Source of the DNA: Candidatus Saccharimonadota bacterium
GTDB lineage: Bacteria; Patescibacteriota; Saccharimonadia; Saccharimonadales; 2-12-FULL-41-12
Reading direction: 5' to 3'
Length of the DNA: 64,000 nt
Assembly (NCBI GenBank): GCA_022842995.1
Contig: JALHOM010000001.1
Location: 77,985 to 141,984 of the forward strand
The notes under the pieces: generated by a model
The model's input: only the letters and a program-made list of their open reading frames with translations
Told to the model about the DNA's origin: nothing
Databases searched by the model: none
Part shown: positions 2,754 through 50,988 of the stretch, piece by piece
Numbering within the stretch: the stretch's first letter is position 1
Layout of the letters: every line of letters begins with the position of its first letter
Position numbers and translations under genes: made by a program

Positions 2754-3467
2754 TTATGTCGTCCTTACTAGGGACAACAACGGAACTGAGAACAAATCTT
2801 CTTGATGACGAGAATCTAATTCAAAATTCCGACCAGCTTCTAGCCTCTTCTGAATTTTTTGACGCCTACGATTTTCTGAATATGCACCGCTTATAACTAG
2901 ACCTACGAAGGTTCCTACCGCGCCAACTGTCGCGGTAACTACACCGGCAACGGGCGATATTTCATATGCCACCGCAACTCCTACACCCGTCGAAACGCTG
3001 GATCCAATCCAATTTCCTGCAACAAGCCTATTTCTTGCCGACCGATTATGCTCTCCCTTTGTAGCGTACTGTGCCAATCCAGATTTTAAGGATTCATTAA
3101 TCTTTACTTCTTGGATTGCGGCCAATTGTTCAGTAGTATATTCTCCAGATCGTTGCGTAGTACCGATATTCAGATACAAGAGATGGTGATTGTCTTGAGC
3201 CGATGAAAGATGTCGTCTTGCGTTTCTCTTTTCTATTAGCTCAACGGAAAAACCATCGTCATATTGACAGTTTATTGCCCGGAGCGGCGTTACGAATTGT
3301 GAGCCATTCATGAAATTAACCATTTCCAGTACACGGCCCAATCTATCTATATCTGGAACTAATTGGAATTCAGCGTCATTAATTTTGTAATTAAGTGCTG
3401 GGAGAGTCAGTAGAGCGCCTGATCTTGGCAAGATTATTTCTTGACTGATTCGATCCGCACTACTCAT
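2754..3467 (-). CDS. hypothetical protein with a C-terminal Gly/Ala/Val-rich membrane segment
   Basis: 237-aa ORF with its own promoter-like site. Hydrophobic GSSVSTGVGVAVAYEISPVAGVVTATVGAVGTFVGLVISGAY near the C-terminus. No family recognised. Confidence 0.5.
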   Translation of the reverse strand: MSSADRISQEIILPRSGALLTLPALNYKINDAEFQLVPDIDRLGRVLEMVNFMNGSQFVTPLRAINCQYDDGFSVELIEKRNARRHLSSAQDNHHLLYLNIGTTQRSGEYTTEQLAAIQEVKINESLKSGLAQYATKGEHNRSARNRLVAGNWIGSSVSTGVGVAVAYEISPVAGVVTATVGAVGTFVGLVISGAYSENRRRQKIQKRLEAGRNFELDSRHQEDLFSVPLLSLVRTT

Positions 3468-3495
3468 AAGATTTTATAATTCCCTTTTGATCTCG

Positions 3496-3524
3496 AGTAT
3501 ACAATTTGCGTAAGTGTTTAACAA
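3496..3524 (-). promoter_or_regulatory. sigma-70-type promoter candidate for CDS 2754-3467
   Basis: Minus strand reads TTGTTA-N17-TATACT, about 30 nt upstream of the ATG at 3467. Confidence 0.35.
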
Positions 3525-3540
3525 CTATTTCTTCATCTTT

Positions 3541-3569
3541 TTCCATTATCAATAAAATGATTCTAAAAT
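3541..3569 (+). promoter_or_regulatory. weak promoter candidate for the plus-strand RNA locus
   Basis: TTCCAT-N17-TAAAAT on the plus strand, just upstream of the ORF-free repeat region. Confidence 0.25.
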
Positions 3570-3787
3570 AATACATGTCAGACGACTAAACTATCCGGAA
3601 TAGCGGGCATCTTATTAATCCACCACTCTAGACGTGTGCAGGCAGGCTATTTGGCGAGAACCTCAGGAGTGGACGTAATTTTGGGTGCGTCTGGCACGGA
3701 AACAGAGAAGATCCTACCTCCACCACCGACCGGCAAGAGCAGCGAGCCTAGCCTTTCAGTCCGTTAAACACCTGCGGGAAAACAGCC

Positions 3788-3866
3788 TTGTATGTGAGTG
3801 CAGTTTGGGTGAAGTTCGAGAACCGTAAACAGGGCGTACTCTAAGGTATGTCCTGTGCGGAAGCGC
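3788..3866 (+). repeat. 79-nt direct repeat, copy 1
   Basis: ttgtatgtgagtgcagtttgggtgaagttcgagaaccgtaaacagggcgtactctaaggtatgtcctgtgcggaagcgc. By eye, 76/79 identical to copy 2. Confidence 0.9.
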
Positions 3867-3951
3867 GCATTACCACAGGCCAAAAACGTATATATTTGAG
3901 TGCAGTTTGATTTTTTGGCGAGAACCGCAATCAACCACAGGCTGAAGACCG

Positions 3952-4030
3952 TTGTATGCGAGCGCAGTTTGGGTGAAGTTCGAGAACCGTAAACAGGGCG
4001 TACTCTAAGGTACGTCCTGTGCGGAAGCGC
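3952..4030 (+). repeat. 79-nt direct repeat, copy 2
   Basis: Same unit 164 nt downstream. The three differences are all T/C transitions. Confidence 0.9.
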
Positions 4031-4057
4031 AGAAATTCATTCAAAATGTGCCGCATA

Positions 4058-4081
4058 CAAGGGTCGATTAATCGACCCTTG
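4058..4081. terminator. perfect palindrome/hairpin spanning the rnj stop codon
   Basis: caagggtcga-ttaa-tcgacccttg with 10-bp arms. No clean U-run on either strand, so it may be a 3' stabiliser or terminator for rnj and/or the plus-strand RNA. Confidence 0.45.
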
Positions 4082-6218
4082 CGTCTTGGTTGAGTAGTTT
4101 CGCCCTCATCTTAGCAAACCGCTCCTGCAACTCTGCAGCCTCTTGCTCTGGAGATTTTTGACCTTGCGGCTTGGCGCCGCCGACATTTGGCCGGTTTTGA
4201 CCTTGCTGGCCCGTCGGCTTCATGTTTTGACCACCTACTTTGGCACCGCCAATGACATTTACTACCGGGATAACGATTGGACTTCGCCCTGTCTGCTCGT
4301 ACAAGAAATGCGTAACGTGTTCGCGCAGTTCGGCCTTAAATCTATCGAGATCAATCCGTTTAAAGCGCTGCGAAACAGCTCGTTTTAGCTCTGCCCGGAA
4401 GGCATTCATAAGCTCTTCTTGGTCCTTCATGTAGATAAATCCACGACTGATGATATCTGGGCTGGTCATCAACTGACCGGACTTCTTGTCAACCGTCAGA
4501 ACAACCGCCACCAGGCCTTCCTGCGAAAGCATCAAGCGATCCTTAACCACGATGTTGCTTACGATAGCGCCCGTTTGATCAACCAAAATTGTTCCATGCG
4601 GAGCAACACCGGCGATTTCCATCTTGTTGCCGTCGAGGGCAATAACCTCTCCGTTTTCAGCATTGATCGTGTTTTTACGAGGAATCCCCTCTTCCACAGC
4701 CGCCTCAATGTGACGCTGTTTCGACCGATACGAGCCATAAATCGGGATAAAGAATTTCGGCTGCGTCATCTGTATCATTTCTTTATATTCATCGATACTT
4801 GCATGGCCAGATACGTGAAGCGGCCCACAACCATCAAGGTCGCGTGTTTCGTGCCTATAGACATGAACACCTTTACGCATAAGATCATCTACCATGTTGC
4901 CGACAAGAGCGTCGTTACCAGACTCAGGAATTGGCGTTGAACTCAAAACCACGGTATCTTGTGGCTTAAGCTTGATATGCTTGTGATCCCCGGACGCCAT
5001 TCTCTGCAAAGCAGAGTTAGGCTCACCCTGACAACCAGTCGACACAACAACAATCTGTTCATCCTTCATACTGGCGACACTGGCGATGGGAACAATCGTG
5101 CCTTTCGGAATGCGTACAAAACCATGCCTCACAGCCATCTCGAGCGTACTAACCATGCTTCGTCCATCTAACGCGATTTTACGGCCATGATGTGACGCAG
5201 CGTTAATGATCATCTGGATACGGTTGACGTTGGTCGAGAACATAGCCATAAAGCAACGCCCAGGAGAATTTTCCATAATATCTATAAAGCTTTGTTCGAT
5301 AGTGCTCTCGCTCGGGGTACGGCCAGGACGTTCTGAAGTTGTGCTTTCGCTCAAAAGCGCCAAGACACCTTCTCGCCCAAGCTCGATCAATCGCTCTGTG
5401 TCACTGCGCTCGTGGTCGAGTGGGTTTGGATCAAGCCTAAAGTCTCCGGTGTTAATAATGCGTCCGACAGGAGTATCCAAGACAACACAGGTACTGCCGG
5501 GAATTGAGTGAGTAATTCGCACAAATTCTAGAGTAAATTCACCAATTTTCAGCCGTTCATGAGTGTTCTCGTTCATGGCGACGGTCTTGAGCTCAAAACC
5601 ATCTGGCATCGGCAGACCGAAGTTCTGGAAGATCTCTTCGACGCGACCGATACTAAATCGACTACCATATACCGGCGCCGGGTATAGCGGCATCATGTGC
5701 GGCAAACCACCAATATGATCAAGGTGGCCATGCGTAATAATATAAGCCCTGAGCTTGTGCTTAACACTGTCTAGATATGACATGTCGGCAATACCGTAGT
5801 TAATACCCGGCAAATCAACACCAAGATCTGAGCCACAGTCAATAATCACGACGTCATTTTTGTATTCAACTAAAATGGTGTTCTTTGAACCACCGCCGTC
5901 CATACCGCCAAGACCAATAATCTTGAGGCGTGGGCTATCGTCGATAAAGTTCGCGCGTCGCTGCTGTTCGCCACCGCCCGACTTGCTGTCGGCGTCTAGA
6001 TACTGACTGGCAATGCGAGTAGCATCTTCGGCATTACGTTTTTGGGCACGAATGGCTTCACCGCGACTTATAGCGCGCTTTTGCGGCTGGCCGTTCGGAG
6101 CGGCTTTATCGCCTCTGTTGTTTGGTCTTTTTCTATTATCTTTTGCTGGTGGCATGACAATTCTCCATGTCTTCTTGTCGTTTTTAGGACTAATTTCTTC
6201 AGCCCTACGTTTACTCAA
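4068..6218 (-). CDS. rnj: ribonuclease J (metallo-beta-lactamase/beta-CASP)
   Basis: 716 aa with motif HGHLDHIGG and a typical RNase J core. Basic N-terminal extension of about 100 aa and a Gln/Gly-rich C-terminal tail. Confidence 0.9.
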   Translation of the reverse strand: MSKRRAEEISPKNDKKTWRIVMPPAKDNRKRPNNRGDKAAPNGQPQKRAISRGEAIRAQKRNAEDATRIASQYLDADSKSGGGEQQRRANFIDDSPRLKIIGLGGMDGGGSKNTILVEYKNDVVIIDCGSDLGVDLPGINYGIADMSYLDSVKHKLRAYIITHGHLDHIGGLPHMMPLYPAPVYGSRFSIGRVEEIFQNFGLPMPDGFELKTVAMNENTHERLKIGEFTLEFVRITHSIPGSTCVVLDTPVGRIINTGDFRLDPNPLDHERSDTERLIELGREGVLALLSESTTSERPGRTPSESTIEQSFIDIMENSPGRCFMAMFSTNVNRIQMIINAASHHGRKIALDGRSMVSTLEMAVRHGFVRIPKGTIVPIASVASMKDEQIVVVSTGCQGEPNSALQRMASGDHKHIKLKPQDTVVLSSTPIPESGNDALVGNMVDDLMRKGVHVYRHETRDLDGCGPLHVSGHASIDEYKEMIQMTQPKFFIPIYGSYRSKQRHIEAAVEEGIPRKNTINAENGEVIALDGNKMEIAGVAPHGTILVDQTGAIVSNIVVKDRLMLSQEGLVAVVLTVDKKSGQLMTSPDIISRGFIYMKDQEELMNAFRAELKRAVSQRFKRIDLDRFKAELREHVTHFLYEQTGRSPIVIPVVNVIGGAKVGGQNMKPTGQQGQNRPNVGGAKPQGQKSPEQEAAELQERFAKMRAKLLNQDARVD

Positions 6219-47620: not shown

Positions 47621-48118
47621 ATGTTTAACGATCAATCTTCCGATCAACACGGACAGAACAATACAGATATGGATCAGGTGGCACAGGATATTTCTGGGGC
47701 TCCGGCTTTTGGCTTAGGGCACAATCCTAGCTCTTTTAATCCAGTACTTCCTAGCCAACAGAACACTCCTGTTGCCGACACAAGCGCCCCACAAGACGAC
47801 AACGTTCCGGTCTCCACACCTACGATGTCCGCGCCCGCCCAAGATAGCATTACACCTCCCGTTGAAGTTCACGGCGAGTTAAACGACATCAAAACCAAGG
47901 CCCTCGAGCAACTTTCGCCACTCGTTCACAAGCTCGATCAATCACCAGAAGATCGCTACAAGACCTTGATGATGCTTATTCAAGCTTCCGACAACCAAGA
48001 TTTGCTCAAAGAAGCCTACGAAGCCGCCAACCAAATCAGCGACGAACAACTCAAAGCCGAAGCCCTACTCGGCGTCGTCAACGAAATCAACTACTTCTCC
48101 GCCAAACAACAGAGCTAG
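47621..48118 (+). CDS. hypothetical protein (gene A)
   Basis: ATG behind an AAGGGGTGG RBS. The N-terminal half is low-complexity and the C-terminal half is helical. Its last 218 nt are duplicated at 49451-49668. Confidence 0.5.
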   Translation: MFNDQSSDQHGQNNTDMDQVAQDISGAPAFGLGHNPSSFNPVLPSQQNTPVADTSAPQDDNVPVSTPTMSAPAQDSITPPVEVHGELNDIKTKALEQLSPLVHKLDQSPEDRYKTLMMLIQASDNQDLLKEAYEAANQISDEQLKAEALLGVVNEINYFSAKQQS

Positions 48119-48121
48119 AAC

Positions 48122-48487
48122 CTAACGTATCCCCATTTGTCTCAGCGCATCATCACCAGAAGCAGGAAGACCCGGAAGTTGAGTCTGGGTTACTGGATTG
48201 TCCGCTTTTACCCTCGTACCAAAATCACTTCCATCGGCATAATGCATGTCCGCCACAGGAGCTCCTTCGTTATCTACTCCAGAAACGACAATTACCTCAT
48301 GCGCTGCACCAGTAGCGCCAATTCGCTCTGCAATTGCCCTAGCCCTAGACCCCAGATCAGCTTCCTTGTATGTTAACGCACCGGACTCGCCTGTTGCCAC
48401 ACCTTTATCCAATGCATCCATTTCTTCAAGAGATACTGGTCCAAGAAGACGAACGCTTTTATTTTTTTCTAGTTTTAAATCTTCCAT
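48122..48487 (-). CDS. hypothetical protein (cargo gene B)
   Basis: 121 aa, driven by promoter copy 1. Confidence 0.45.
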   Translation of the reverse strand: MEDLKLEKNKSVRLLGPVSLEEMDALDKGVATGESGALTYKEADLGSRARAIAERIGATGAAHEVIVVSGVDNEGAPVADMHYADGSDFGTRVKADNPVTQTQLPGLPASGDDALRQMGIR

Positions 48488-48525
48488 TTTTTTCCTTTTT
48501 TTATTTTTTAAATGAACATAATTCT

Positions 48526-48554
48526 AATGTATCATGCTTGTGCTTTTTTGTCAA
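48526..48554 (-). promoter_or_regulatory. near-consensus promoter, copy 1
   Basis: Minus strand TTGACA-N17-TACATT preceded by TGa. It is part of a ~38-nt exact repeat shared with 50401-50446. Confidence 0.55.
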
Positions 48555-48565
48555 TTGTCTTTTGT

Positions 48566-49450
48566 GGTTCATTAAACTAATACGGAACAGCCAGTAGAAT
48601 AAGTAGTTGGAAAAACACTTAATTCGAAAGGACTGTTCCGCAATGACTAGTCTAGCAGAGACACCAGGCGAAGTCTGGTGTCATAGATACATTTATCAAC
48701 TAACGTTCAGCACCAGGGGCTGTATACACTGTGCTGGCAAGCTCGTGTTCAAAAGCTCTCGTAGCTACGCTTGGTGTAAAACCTGTCGAGTTAAAATCTC
48801 AGCCAAAGCAGTTACGTGGCTTAGAAACAGTAACTTAAGCTATCGTCAAATCTACCAACTGCTCTGGTGCTGGCAGAAGCGAAAGGACCCTGGGTTCATT
48901 CATGACGCACCAGGGCTTAGTTACACGACAATAAATCGTTGGTATGAGCGCTTCCGCGCTCATCTACCGCAAGATGACTCTCGAAAGCTCCTCGTTGACC
49001 TGGTAGAGATCGATGAGTCATTCTTCGGTAAGAAGCGCTACAAAAACCAGAAGATCGTCATTGGTGCTATAGAACCGCAAACAAGGAGGATTAAGCTACA
49101 GATCATCACTGATCGTGAAGCAGAGACCTTTGAAGCTTTCGTCGAATCGAATGTTGCTAGCAGCTCGGTTGTCATGACTGACTCCCATCCTAGCTACAAT
49201 GACCTAGACTGTCTTGGCTATACGCATTACAGCTTTAATCACTCCAAGGGTGAATATACCAACACGAACCAAATCGAGAACCTGTGGGGAGTCATTAAGC
49301 GCTATATGAGAAAGCTCTATGGTTCTATTCCCACAAAACACTTGCAGTCCATTCTAGACGAATGGACTGCAAGACTGAACAGGCCAAGCCTGTTCATCTC
49401 ACCAGAAAACTACTTAGATGCTTGTTTGTTCCGGATTAGTTGACTGAACC
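48566..49450 (+). mobile_element. IS1595-family insertion sequence
   Basis: 25-nt terminal inverted repeats: ggttcattaaactaatacggaacag, and on the right end the reverse complement of ttgttccggattagttgactgaacc (21/25 match). Single transposase ORF. No flanking direct repeat. Confidence 0.8.
48607..49443 (+). CDS. IS1595-family (ISXO2-like) DDE transposase
   Basis: N-terminal Cys-rich zinc ribbon (CIHCAG...CKTCR). DDE residues in VEIDESFFG, VMTDSHPSY and NQIENLW. The true start may be the ATG at 48643. Confidence 0.8.
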   Translation: MEKHLIRKDCSAMTSLAETPGEVWCHRYIYQLTFSTRGCIHCAGKLVFKSSRSYAWCKTCRVKISAKAVTWLRNSNLSYRQIYQLLWCWQKRKDPGFIHDAPGLSYTTINRWYERFRAHLPQDDSRKLLVDLVEIDESFFGKKRYKNQKIVIGAIEPQTRRIKLQIITDREAETFEAFVESNVASSSVVMTDSHPSYNDLDCLGYTHYSFNHSKGEYTNTNQIENLWGVIKRYMRKLYGSIPTKHLQSILDEWTARLNRPSLFISPENYLDACLFRIS

Positions 49451-49668
49451 CCCTCGAGCAATTATCTCCGCTCGTAAATAAGCTCGACCAAACTCCGGAA
49501 GATCGCTACAAGACGTTAATGATGCTTATCCAAGCGTCCGACAATCAAGACTTACTCAAAGAAGCCTACGAAGCCGCCAATCAAATTGCCGACGAGCAGC
49601 TCAAAGCCGAAGCCCTTCTCGGCGTCGTCAACGAAATCAACTACTTCTCCGCCAAACAACAGAGCTAA
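49451..49668 (+). pseudogene. 5'-truncated copy of gene A (3' 218 nt)
   Basis: Starts exactly at the IS right end. Encodes LEQLSPLVNKLDQTPEDRYKTLMMLIQASDNQDLLKEAYEAANQIADEQLKAEALLGVVNEINYFSAKQQS*, nearly identical to the gene A C-terminus. Confidence 0.75.
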
Positions 49669-49678
49669 TTTCTGAATC

Positions 49679-50362
49679 TTAGGAGTTTAGTGCTACCCTG
49701 CCGAGTGGCGAAGAAACTTGAGATGTCAACTTTAGCGACTCTACTGCGGGATGCCTTTTTGCTCCATTTAGATATGTGTTGTTCGTCGGCCCCATATCCC
49801 GTATGTAGACATAGCCTCCTGATGATCCGACAACAAAATGCATATCAGAAGTAGTTCCATCAAACTTACCAGGATTCTCTTCGTCTTTCATACCTTTTCC
49901 AGCGTGAAACGCCTTTCCTACATTCATGAATTTGACATCGCCGTCGTAAGTCGGAGGGATTTCCACATATTCATATCCACCATCTTTTAAAGGTGCTAAC
50001 AGCCCATGAACATTCCTTTGCGGTACGTCTCCGCTCGGCGCTAACAGTTTATTGGATACTAAAATAAATTCCGTCCTTCGATTACTCGCCCCGGCGCCAA
50101 TCACGGCAAGCGGCAATAGTTCTCGTTCCCCGGATGCGCCCGGTTGCCTGAACTTTATGTAACCTTCTCCGTGAAGGACACTTTTATCAACCTCTAAGCG
50201 CTCTATCGACCCTTTCGGCATTGTAATTGGCTCGGTATCGCCATCTGGCAAATATTGTTGTTTTGTATCCCATACTTTTATTCCTTCCGGAAGCCTAACC
50301 CTGCTGGTATCTACCAAATCTGAAGGGTCTTGAATTAATTGTCTTTGACCTGATTCTGTCAT
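49679..50362 (-). CDS. hypothetical protein with a C-terminal FHA-like domain (cargo gene C)
   Basis: TSDMHFVVGSSGGYVYIRDMGPTNNTYLNGAK resembles the FHA core (SxxH ... DLGSTNGTxVNG). Driven by promoter copy 2. Confidence 0.5.
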   Translation of the reverse strand: MTESGQRQLIQDPSDLVDTSRVRLPEGIKVWDTKQQYLPDGDTEPITMPKGSIERLEVDKSVLHGEGYIKFRQPGASGERELLPLAVIGAGASNRRTEFILVSNKLLAPSGDVPQRNVHGLLAPLKDGGYEYVEIPPTYDGDVKFMNVGKAFHAGKGMKDEENPGKFDGTTSDMHFVVGSSGGYVYIRDMGPTNNTYLNGAKRHPAVESLKLTSQVSSPLGRVALNS

Positions 50363-50405
50363 TTTTATTTATCCTGGTTTTTTATTTTTGATTATTTATG
50401 TAATT

Positions 50406-50434
50406 AATGTATCATGCTTGTGCTTTTTTGTCAA
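50406..50434 (-). promoter_or_regulatory. near-consensus promoter, copy 2
   Basis: Identical TTGACA-N17-TACATT block upstream of CDS 49679-50362. Confidence 0.55.
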
Positions 50435-50466
50435 TTGTCTTTGTTGATATGTTGCTACTTCAAGCC

Positions 50467-50532: not shown

Positions 50533-50988
50533 CTACATTCCCTCGTCGCCAGTAGCTGGCAAAGCTGTGGCTGGTGTCGTAGTCGTCGATGCGTCACCAG
50601 TGCTCGGTGTCGATACTGGAGCTGGAGTAGTAGCAGACGTTGATGGAGTTGACGCAGCAGGAGAGCTACTTTGGCTCGAAGAGTTTGTAGAGTCGGTGGA
50701 TGTTGTAGGCGTCGAGCCTTGGTTGTCTGAGGCTTTGGTGTCTTCGTTCTTCTTGGATGATTCCGTGATAGTCTCTACTTTTTTGGGCTCGTTGTTATCT
50801 GAAAGACGGTTGTAGAGTGCCCGACCACCAAAGAACAGGCCGAGTCCAATAAGCAACGTAACAATAAGAGCAACAATGCCTAAAATAACCGCCACACCAG
50901 CTCGTTCACGGCGCTGTGACTGATAATACTGATTTACTTCCTCTGGAAGTACACTATTACTTTTGTTGGATCGTTTGAACAAAGCCAC
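50533..50988 (-). CDS. membrane-anchored Ser/Thr/Pro-rich protein
   Basis: TM helix AGVAVILGIVALIVTLLIGLGLFFG followed by an S/T/P-rich tail. Confidence 0.5.
   Translation of the reverse strand: MALFKRSNKSNSVLPEEVNQYYQSQRRERAGVAVILGIVALIVTLLIGLGLFFGGRALYNRLSDNNEPKKVETITESSKKNEDTKASDNQGSTPTTSTDSTNSSSQSSSPAASTPSTSATTPAPVSTPSTGDASTTTTPATALPATGDEGM

Follow-up and report, generated by a model that had tools for sequence, protein, structure and literature searches.

How does a single insertion sequence (IS) come to lie between two modules that share their flanks but carry unrelated genes? The question is raised by a 64-kb stretch of Saccharibacteria DNA (the window), in which the 3′-end of a gene (A) is followed, on either side of an IS, by a convergent cargo gene (B or C) and then by a promoter block (Table 1). 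The initial annotation had described this two-module anatomy, and all of its features were found to be present (the A repeat at 88.5% identity, the promoter block at 38/38 nt). It had also taken the modules for a segmental duplication with the IS at its junction, which the divergence of the two A tails contradicts, and had suggested IS-mediated deletion or recombination as the cause. Recombination is the best reading, and deletion is kept as a rival: two allelic forms of a single variable locus would have been joined via the IS, with one crossover inside it. We give this reading about an even chance of being correct.

Table 1. Features of the locus (positions in the window)
Feature	Position	Strand	Description
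Gene A (A1)	47621..48118	+	165 aa, full length; ORF with RBS
A tail 1	47901..48118	+	3′ 218 nt of intact gene A; left direct-repeat copy
Cargo gene B	48122..48487	-	121 aa, ORFan; convergent with A, stop codons 3 nt apart
Promoter block P1 (predicted, for B)	48525..48562	-	-35 TTGACA 48554-48549, 17-nt spacer, TG-extended -10 TACATT 48531-48526
IS1595-family IS	48566..49450	+	885 bp; GGTTCA...TGAACC
IS inverted repeats	IRL 48566-48590, IRR 49426-49450		21/25 by direct reading
Transposase	48643-49443	+	266 aa, intact; DESFFG...TD...NQIENLW motif, CxxC...CxxC zinc ribbon
A tail 2	49451..49668	+	remnant of a second A gene (A2), diverged and 5′-truncated
Cargo gene C	49679..50362	-	227 aa, C-terminus weakly FHA-like; orthologue of L002 228-aa gene
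Promoter block P2 (predicted, for C)	50405..50442	-	identical to P1
Membrane/low-complexity protein gene	50533..50988	-	151 aa; conserved right border of cargo slot

The assignment of the IS to the IS1595 family was upheld by matches of its transposase to PF12762 (1e-20, 74.5 bits; cut-off 27) and NF033547 (2e-31, 109 bits; cut-off 75), and its translation (DESFFG...MTDSHPSY...NQIENLW) agrees with the motif published for ISApl4. The ends of the element could be placed to the base, since the flanks of 12 related copies diverge exactly there. Only one copy is present in the window. The identical transposase was found on one contig only; the nearest other transposase is 80% identical, and the nearest annotated plasmid copies (named as IS1595 family) are at most 29% identical. 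This is a new, apparently intact element of the IS1595 lineage, belonging to a deep, Saccharibacteria-specific branch. A hairpin lies inside it at 49373-49341. Its left flank is TCTTTTGT and its right flank CCCTCGAG, differing as the initial annotation had read them, with no target-site duplication. Perfect 8-bp duplications border related ISs whose ends are built alike and which lie on contigs of 8.6-15 kb (GATGAATA in L098, L099 and L100; GAAATGAC in L103). Since these relatives duplicate 8 bp and the copy in the window does not, the latter is probably not a simple insertion; moreover, its two flanks are not contiguous in L002, the closest relative. ISApl4, a member of the IS1595 family, generates 8-bp repeats, the exceptions being copies that took part in recombination (PMC12561309).

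Homology to A resumes at the first base past the IS, and self-comparison of the locus recovered the A tail, the promoter block, the IS repeats and nothing else. The direct repeat (47901-48117 versus 49451-49667) spans 217 nt at 88.5% identity; its close agreement over the last 75 nt, seen earlier by eye, amounts to three mismatches, the final 51 nt being identical. The promoter block (48525-48562 and 50405-50442) occurs exactly twice in the window at up to three mismatches, against a chance expectation of 0, and a weaker homology extends over 48489-48562 versus 50368-50442 at 84%. On the minus strand it reads TTGACA-17 nt-TACATT with a TG extended -10, i.e. a plain sigma-70-type promoter. A search of the whole window against Rfam gave no match, and base composition revealed no foreign island.

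The similar architecture of the modules, and the identity of the 38-nt block and of the 3′-end of A, might suggest a true tandem duplication of tail, cargo and promoter within this genome, followed by replacement of one cargo and later insertion of the IS. The tails, however, differ at 25 positions, 20 of them synonymous (dS 0.71, dN/dS 0.04), and purifying selection would not have held a non-functional tail in this way. Tail 2 retains 71 codons and its stop codon, with no internal stops or frameshifts, and lies in frame with the transposase stop codon. Given this divergence and clean reading frame, the differences must have accumulated while the genes were functional, and tail 2 was cut recently. 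The tails are as distant from each other as each is from its orthologues in two relatives, L001 and L002 (88.5-90.3% identity throughout). Deep, constrained divergence at the distance of orthologues indicates two long-separated functional alleles brought side by side, not copies made within the genome. The identical A-end and promoter stretches are also conserved in other genomes and are, therefore, no sign of recent copying. As no relationship between B and C could be detected either, the tandem duplication is very improbable.

A second A gene at the locus would also be unusual. A is a Saccharibacteria-wide protein in which a disordered N-terminus precedes a conserved domain of ~75 aa at the C-terminus; it has no Pfam or NCBIfam match, and the search for its homologues returned 230 proteins, all from Saccharibacteria where named. 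Scanning genome contigs with the A alignment as query yielded 478 A loci, and A usually adjoins the PGI gene (73 of 82 loci). None of 82 other A loci has a comparable second tail, the single second match (in L056) being 33% identical and ~5.6 kb away. In the 80 loci that the scan returned, the top identity was 58%, and B, C, the promoter block and a comparable A-tail copy were all absent.

These observations bear on IS-mediated adjacent deletion, in which a tandem array of A1-B-P1 and a full A2-C-P2 would have held the IS at one junction, and a deletion running to the other would have removed the 5′ part of A2. The anatomy fits, and such a deletion classically leaves a lone IS that lacks a duplication and abuts a truncated gene. 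Nevertheless, the diverged second module would have had to be imported beforehand, which adds steps; no relative examined carries two A genes at this locus; and adjacent deletion is not an established outcome of IS1595-family transposition chemistry. We consider it rather unlikely.

The two cargo genes differ in their affinities. Searches for homologues of B returned only B itself, both among 5.8e9 proteins (word-indexed search) and among 1.84e9 representatives (full HMMER), and Pfam, NCBIfam, PADLOC and PHROG gave no match; PADLOC and PHROGs likewise had none for A, C or the L001 cargo. B is nonetheless preceded by its own RBS as well as the promoter block, and its codon-usage score (0.33) is host-like (training genes 0.26 ± 0.08), while the overlapping frames score negative. 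Judged by these searches, B is from an unsampled source, yet its codon usage is that of the host. C is 62% identical to a 228-aa gene that lies directly 3′ of A in L002. It scores 23.5 bits against PF00498 (FHA; cut-off 20.7), with the match limited to residues 170-212, while its L002 orthologue remains under the cut-off at 18.4 bits; a PDB sequence search gave weak matches only (E at least 0.16), two of them to FHA proteins. The FHA assignment of C is weak. Single-sequence AlphaFold models of B (pLDDT 40) and C (pLDDT 30) were unusable. That B and C are unrelated, as the initial annotation had held, agrees with the absence of a BLASTP match between them, the E-value of 0.11 (among 8 targets) obtained for B with a C-family HMM, and an hhalign probability of 1.5%. 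A motif of the form xDMH[FY]...NP.T.T.L.G is visible in both proteins but is not significant; the C motif also occurs in the 84-aa and 426-aa cargo genes of L001.

Comparison with relatives showed the cargo to occupy a variable slot. In L002 the order is PGI-A-C-promoter-membrane gene, and B, the IS and the extra tail are all absent; L001 has other cargo and two promoter blocks in the slot; and in distant Saccharibacteria the membrane gene directly follows A, with no cargo. Three related genomes thus differ in the promoter-led genes that lie between A and the membrane gene, and in all three (the window, L001 and L002) the cargo stop codons lie 3-14 nt from that of A. The five copies of the promoter block in these genomes differ at 0-5 of 38 nt; one position is T in both P1 and P2, A in both L001 copies and G in L002. 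The backbone is consistent on both sides of the locus, the window being nearer to L002 than to L001 in shared sites in PGI (115 versus 71) and in GroEL (126 versus 76). Three-way site patterns did not locate a left crossover.

The variable, promoter-led genes bear out part of the earlier suggestion of a cassette-exchange locus, and the two blocks in L001 would also be in keeping with a dedicated, integron-like or recombinase-driven system that loads genes between A and the membrane gene, the IS being incidental. The machinery for this is missing: no integrase was detected in a Pfam scan of the window neighbours (PGI, the membrane gene, a 90-aa and a 303-aa gene) or among the precomputed Pfam families of the syntenic genes of L001 and L002, the IS transposase is the sole recombinase gene present, no attC-like repeats occur at the cassette borders, and the shared block is an ordinary promoter. 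Such a system can be given next to no credence. Another possibility, speculative and on balance improbable, is that the 38-nt promoter block and the terminal ~50 nt of A may serve as recombination arms that are portable: through natural transformation, diverged Saccharibacteria of the soil would swap promoter-led cargo genes or stack them. Across genomes with dS ~0.7, this end of A does not vary even at synonymous sites. Were the two stretches to act in this way, the window would hold a half-completed exchange retained by the IS, and the slot would be a simple, recombinase-free cassette site in an episymbiont with a reduced genome, serving fast-evolving proteins of the FHA-like and ORFan kinds. 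A metagenome scan with the promoter core returned three contigs with ~30 nt of promoter in common, otherwise unrelated, and no further cassette loci. An antisense terminator was considered as the cause of the nucleotide conservation in the A tail and rejected, since the predicted fold was no better than that of shuffled sequence (z = 0.44).

Under the preferred reading, i.e. the joining of two alleles by recombination via the IS, the resident locus would have been L002-like (PGI-A2-C-P-membrane gene), with the IS inserted into A2 between ...GG and CCCTCGAG, disrupting a conserved gene. The donor, from a diverged Saccharibacteria lineage, would have carried A1-B-P and the same IS just upstream of the promoter block. 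Recombination of donor DNA with the resident locus, by a left crossover located in A or upstream of it and a right one within the IS, would have replaced the left half of the IS-hit A2-C locus by the donor A1-B-promoter-IS module. The product would be PGI-A1-B-P1-IS-'A2 tail-C-P2-membrane gene, in which the A gene is intact again and 218 nt of A2 are stranded from the first base past the IS. The IS would keep one flank from each parent, which would explain the lack of a target duplication. The same product could be reached if a circle of IS and tail-B-P, excised between two IS copies, integrated through one crossover within the A tail. The two parental insertions of the IS, the order of events and the uptake of donor DNA by natural transformation are inferred; natural competence is reported for Saccharibacteria (PMC10187176). 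No collection searched contained either parental state (A2 interrupted by the IS with a duplication of CCCTCGAG, or A1-B-P-IS with TCTTTTGT repeated after it), and with one IS copy in the window and the identical transposase on one contig there is no direct sign of the multiple copies that the model needs.

The same junction could be an assembly chimera. Two related, co-existing populations would have carried the IS at different points of the locus (upstream of P in an A1-B allele, and inside A2 in an A2-C allele), and the assembler would have entered the IS from one and left it into the other. The window comes from an NCBI contig of 151.5 kb and unspecified type; most related ISs lie on ~1-kb contigs broken exactly at the IS ends; and the duplication is absent from the copies on three short IS-spanning contigs (L004, L092/L093 and L097) but present on longer ones, which suggests short-read mis-joins across the repeat. 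Judging from these three copies, hybrid flanks could be common, or short-read assemblies could scramble them. The divergence of the tails is also that between different species. Against a chimera, both flanks relate identically to L001 and L002, the T common to P1 and P2 hints at co-residence or a common lineage, and an identical IS would have to have struck the same 2-kb locus in two populations separated by dS ~0.7. We regard a chimera as unlikely, if a good deal more than negligible.

Taken as recombination via the IS, the locus would offer a clean, datable example of exchange between species-distant lineages of Saccharibacteria, a group with tiny genomes for which most evidence of gene flow is indirect. 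A small hypervariable slot also comes to light, bounded by the phylum-wide conserved A and the membrane-protein gene; its promoter-led cargo, weakly FHA-like proteins and an ORFan among it, turns over fast, and the slot is a possible entry point to strain-level variation in these episymbionts. The locus leaves the understanding of IS-mediated rearrangement unchanged, and its value is descriptive.

Among known systems, the element resembles members of the IS1595 family (ISApl4, IS1016 subgroup; PMC12561309) in its single DDE transposase ORF with an ISXO2-like domain (DESxFG...TD...N-IENxW), its N-terminal zinc ribbon, short imperfect terminal inverted repeats, a length below 1 kb, and the 8-bp duplications of its relatives; it differs in representing a Saccharibacteria-specific deep lineage and in the lack of a duplication at this copy. 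IS flanks derived from different insertion events are also found in the products of inter-IS recombination (IS26; Tn7560 with ISApl4; PMC12561309), and a translocatable unit of one IS and adjacent DNA, integrating by recombination, would give exactly such a homologous-arm duplication (PMC12561309). Unlike pseudo-compound transposons and translocatable units, however, the window holds one IS in 64 kb in place of two direct copies, a circular form is undocumented, and the cargo is a small ORFan, not a resistance gene. In integron cassette arrays, too, small genes that are unrelated to one another line up on one strand at a single site, with variation between relatives, but here each gene has its own promoter and there is no integrase, attC or attI. 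Allelic replacement by homologous recombination in conserved flanks after natural transformation, as at capsule and O-antigen loci, together with homology-facilitated illegitimate recombination, shares with the locus the conserved flanks around unrelated cargo (here the 3′-end of A on one side, the promoter block and membrane gene on the other), the species-level divergence of the alleles and a naturally competent host phylum. Here the replacement would be incomplete: both alleles lie side by side, and would have persisted because one crossover fell in the IS and not in the right-hand flank. Set beside these systems, the locus bears the marks that IS-assisted recombination with foreign DNA ordinarily leaves, and not those of a duplication; it is ordinary in kind and cleanly preserved.

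All the elements listed in the initial annotation were found where it had placed them. The locus carries two cargo genes, B and C, each preceded by a 38-nt block (P1 and P2, respectively), with an IS1595-family insertion sequence (IS) lying between the two modules.

Features of the locus around the insertion sequence
Feature	Position	Strand	Description
Gene A (A1; its 3′ part is tail1)	47621-48118		165 aa, followed by convergent gene B
Gene B	48122-48487	minus	121 aa, convergent with A
IS	48566-49450		
Tail2	49451-49668		5′-truncated copy of the 3′ end of A
Gene C	49679-50362		227 aa, convergent with tail2

The A-tail repeat (88.5% identity over 217 nt) had been taken for a segmental duplication, a reading that proved wrong. 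Differences between tail1 and tail2 occur at 25 of 213 coding positions, 20 of them synonymous (dS 0.71, dN/dS 0.04), no stop or frameshift was found in tail2, and the identity between the tails (88.5%) is on a par with their identity to the orthologous tails of two other genomes (88.5-90.3%). A true duplication is contradicted by these values. The substitution pattern and the orthologue-like distance instead indicate that the tails diverged while each still belonged to a functional A gene, in separate lineages, and that tail2 (the remnant of a second gene, A2) was cut off recently. The near-identical parts are the promoter block and the final ∼50 nt of A; both are conserved in the other genomes too and so do not date a copy event. 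Over those ∼50 nt (48068-48118; 49618-49668) the tails show zero synonymous differences despite the tail dS of 0.71, and there are almost none with respect to the related genomes L001 (8470-8519) and L002 (1738-1787), which suggests nucleotide-level constraint or repeated recombination; the antisense RNA fold of this segment was not significant (z = 0.44).

Gene A has 230 homologues, all from Saccharibacteria where named. In L002, the closest relative, the order is PGI gene, A (87% identical), a 228-aa gene (62% identity to C), promoter block and membrane-protein gene, i.e. the arrangement of the window without B, the IS or the extra tail. In L001, PGI and A (about 85% identical by BLASTP) are followed by 84-aa, 128-aa and 426-aa genes with two promoter blocks, and then by the membrane-protein gene. 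In the 80 species-level genomes whose A genes are more distant, the gene immediately after A usually encodes the membrane protein (28 loci in one cluster) or GroEL; B, C and the promoter block are absent from these genomes, and their sole second A-tail match (L056) is 33% identical and about 5.6 kb off. This absence, together with the differences between L001 and L002, shows the cargo slot to be specific to the small clade formed by the window, L001 and L002, and variable within it. Two short conserved arms flanking a fast-turning, promoter-led cargo slot are the lead worth following. A second variable spot adjoins this slot: L002 bears at 3258-6142, between the membrane-protein gene and a 90-aa gene, two plus-strand genes absent from the window and L001, which encode a 729-aa P-loop ATPase with weak HerA/TrwB/TraG-like matches and a 230-aa protein. 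The gene A protein itself, compared across 82 related loci (in 73 of which the gene adjoins PGI), has an MF(N/D)D start, a disordered middle and a C-terminal domain with an invariant LSPLV...MM.IQ..DN...NEINYF; it matched no Pfam or NCBIfam family and is a candidate new domain family.

The 38-nt block (48525-48562) recurs exactly at 50405-50442, with no third copy in the window at ≤3 mismatches. On the minus strand it reads TTGACA-17-TACATT with a TG extension, and it is thus predicted to be a near-consensus promoter ahead of each cargo gene. Its core including the spacer, TTGACAAATAAGCAAAAGCATGATACATT, recurs in three metagenome contigs (L089, 3884-3911; L090, 3743-3770; L091, 1487-1514) that otherwise have no sequence or gene in common with the locus; a match of 26 specified bases is too long to be accidental, and the core may represent a type of promoter or operator conserved in related bacteria. 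The segment 41588-41922 contains an 87-aa ORF of host-like codon usage behind a promoter-like site and an A/T-rich leader with weak similarity to that of P2 (74.6% over 67 nt, E 0.001).

B and C had been described as unrelated in sequence, and indeed the match of B to the C family was not significant. B is an ORFan, with no homologue in two exhaustive searches; it is probably a real gene, since its codon usage is host-like (overlapping frames score negative) and it has its own predicted RBS and promoter. C gave a weak FHA match (23.5 bits, cut-off 20.7), and its FHA-like motif is common to the 84-aa and 426-aa proteins of L001. The 128-aa and 84-aa ORFs of L001 (8524-9167) lie 2 nt apart, the latter matching C at its FHA-like C-terminus; their combined length is close to that of C, as if a C-like gene had been split or were decaying. 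Structure models of B and C were unusable, and no cargo gene matched defence or phage families. An integron-like system was contradicted by the tests run on the locus.

The IS ends (GGTTCA...TGAACC) were set by 12 related metagenome copies, whose flanks part exactly at these bases. As had been claimed, there is no target-site duplication (TCTTTTGT versus CCCTCGAG). Two more distant ISs with the same end architecture, on contigs of 8.6-15 kb, are bordered by perfect 8-bp duplications (GATGAATA in L098/L099/L100; GAAATGAC in L103), and ISApl4 makes 8-bp repeats save at copies involved in recombination (PMC12561309). The lineage thus duplicates 8 bp, and the window copy does not appear to be a simple insertion. 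Three related copies with both flanks present (L004, L092/L093, L097) also lack a duplication, on metagenome contigs of 1.5-1.9 kb; either flanks belonging to different copies become joined in short-read assemblies, or this IS lineage often has hybrid flanks. Such short contigs, and the frequent breaking of contigs at the ends of related ISs, would fit a chimeric assembly in which two co-existing populations were joined across the IS. This is unlikely; against it, both flanks are related to L001 and L002 alike, and at one position P1 and P2 have the same base where all three L001/L002 copies carry another. The backbone is nearer L002 than L001 both left and right of the junction (PGI, 115 versus 71 sites; GroEL, 126 versus 76).

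The IS links the upstream edge of one allele, A1-B-P, to the middle of another, A2-C-P, and the earlier suggestion of IS-mediated recombination or deletion is supported. Recombination between the two alleles via the IS and A is the explanation to which we give an even chance. In the simplest route, each IS flank would derive from an ordinary insertion in a separate parent: in the A1-B lineage upstream of P, and in the resident lineage within A2. Recombination, with the IS as one homologous arm and A or DNA to its left as the other, would then have restored an intact A, a phylum-wide conserved gene. Two-parent recombination would explain why the flanks are hybrid and why tail2 starts exactly where it does. 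In a variant with an identical product, a circular IS-plus-cargo unit would integrate by a crossover in the tail. DNA uptake is plausible, Saccharibacteria being naturally competent (PMC10187176). Adjacent deletion in an ancestor with two tandem modules could also leave the IS at this junction, but it requires extra steps and an ancestor seen in no relative, and is quite improbable.

Within the IS, a leader hairpin (48583-48640; -22.4 kcal/mol, z = -3.2), in which CGGAACAGCC pairs with GGACTGTTCCG, would bury the transposase RBS; the stem is kept in related ISs via compensatory changes (L098, GGAACAACC/GGTTGTTCC; L103, GAACAATCC/GGATTGTTC), and resembles the common means by which ISs avoid being activated by transcripts reading in from outside. 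The 3′ end of the transposase gene contains a perfect 14-bp inverted repeat (49341-49373; 5-nt loop) that looks like a terminator on the minus strand and would halt P2 transcripts crossing C and tail2 into the IS. The transposase stop (TGA, 49441-49443) is in frame with tail2, with four sense codons between (49441-49455), such that read-through would yield a transposase-A-tail fusion; the shared frame is probably a coincidence, given its prior chance of one in three.

The 266-aa transposase encoded at 48643-49443 passes the thresholds of both PF12762 and NF033547. Its closest relative is 80% identical, and an identical protein was found on one contig only; annotated plasmid relatives, named as IS1595 family, are ≤29% identical. 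Its motif, DESFFG...TD...NQIENLW, is comparable to the catalytic motif quoted for ISApl4 (PMC12561309). The IS is thus a new member of a known family, and the class of mechanism, IS-assisted recombination at a variable locus, is likewise already known.
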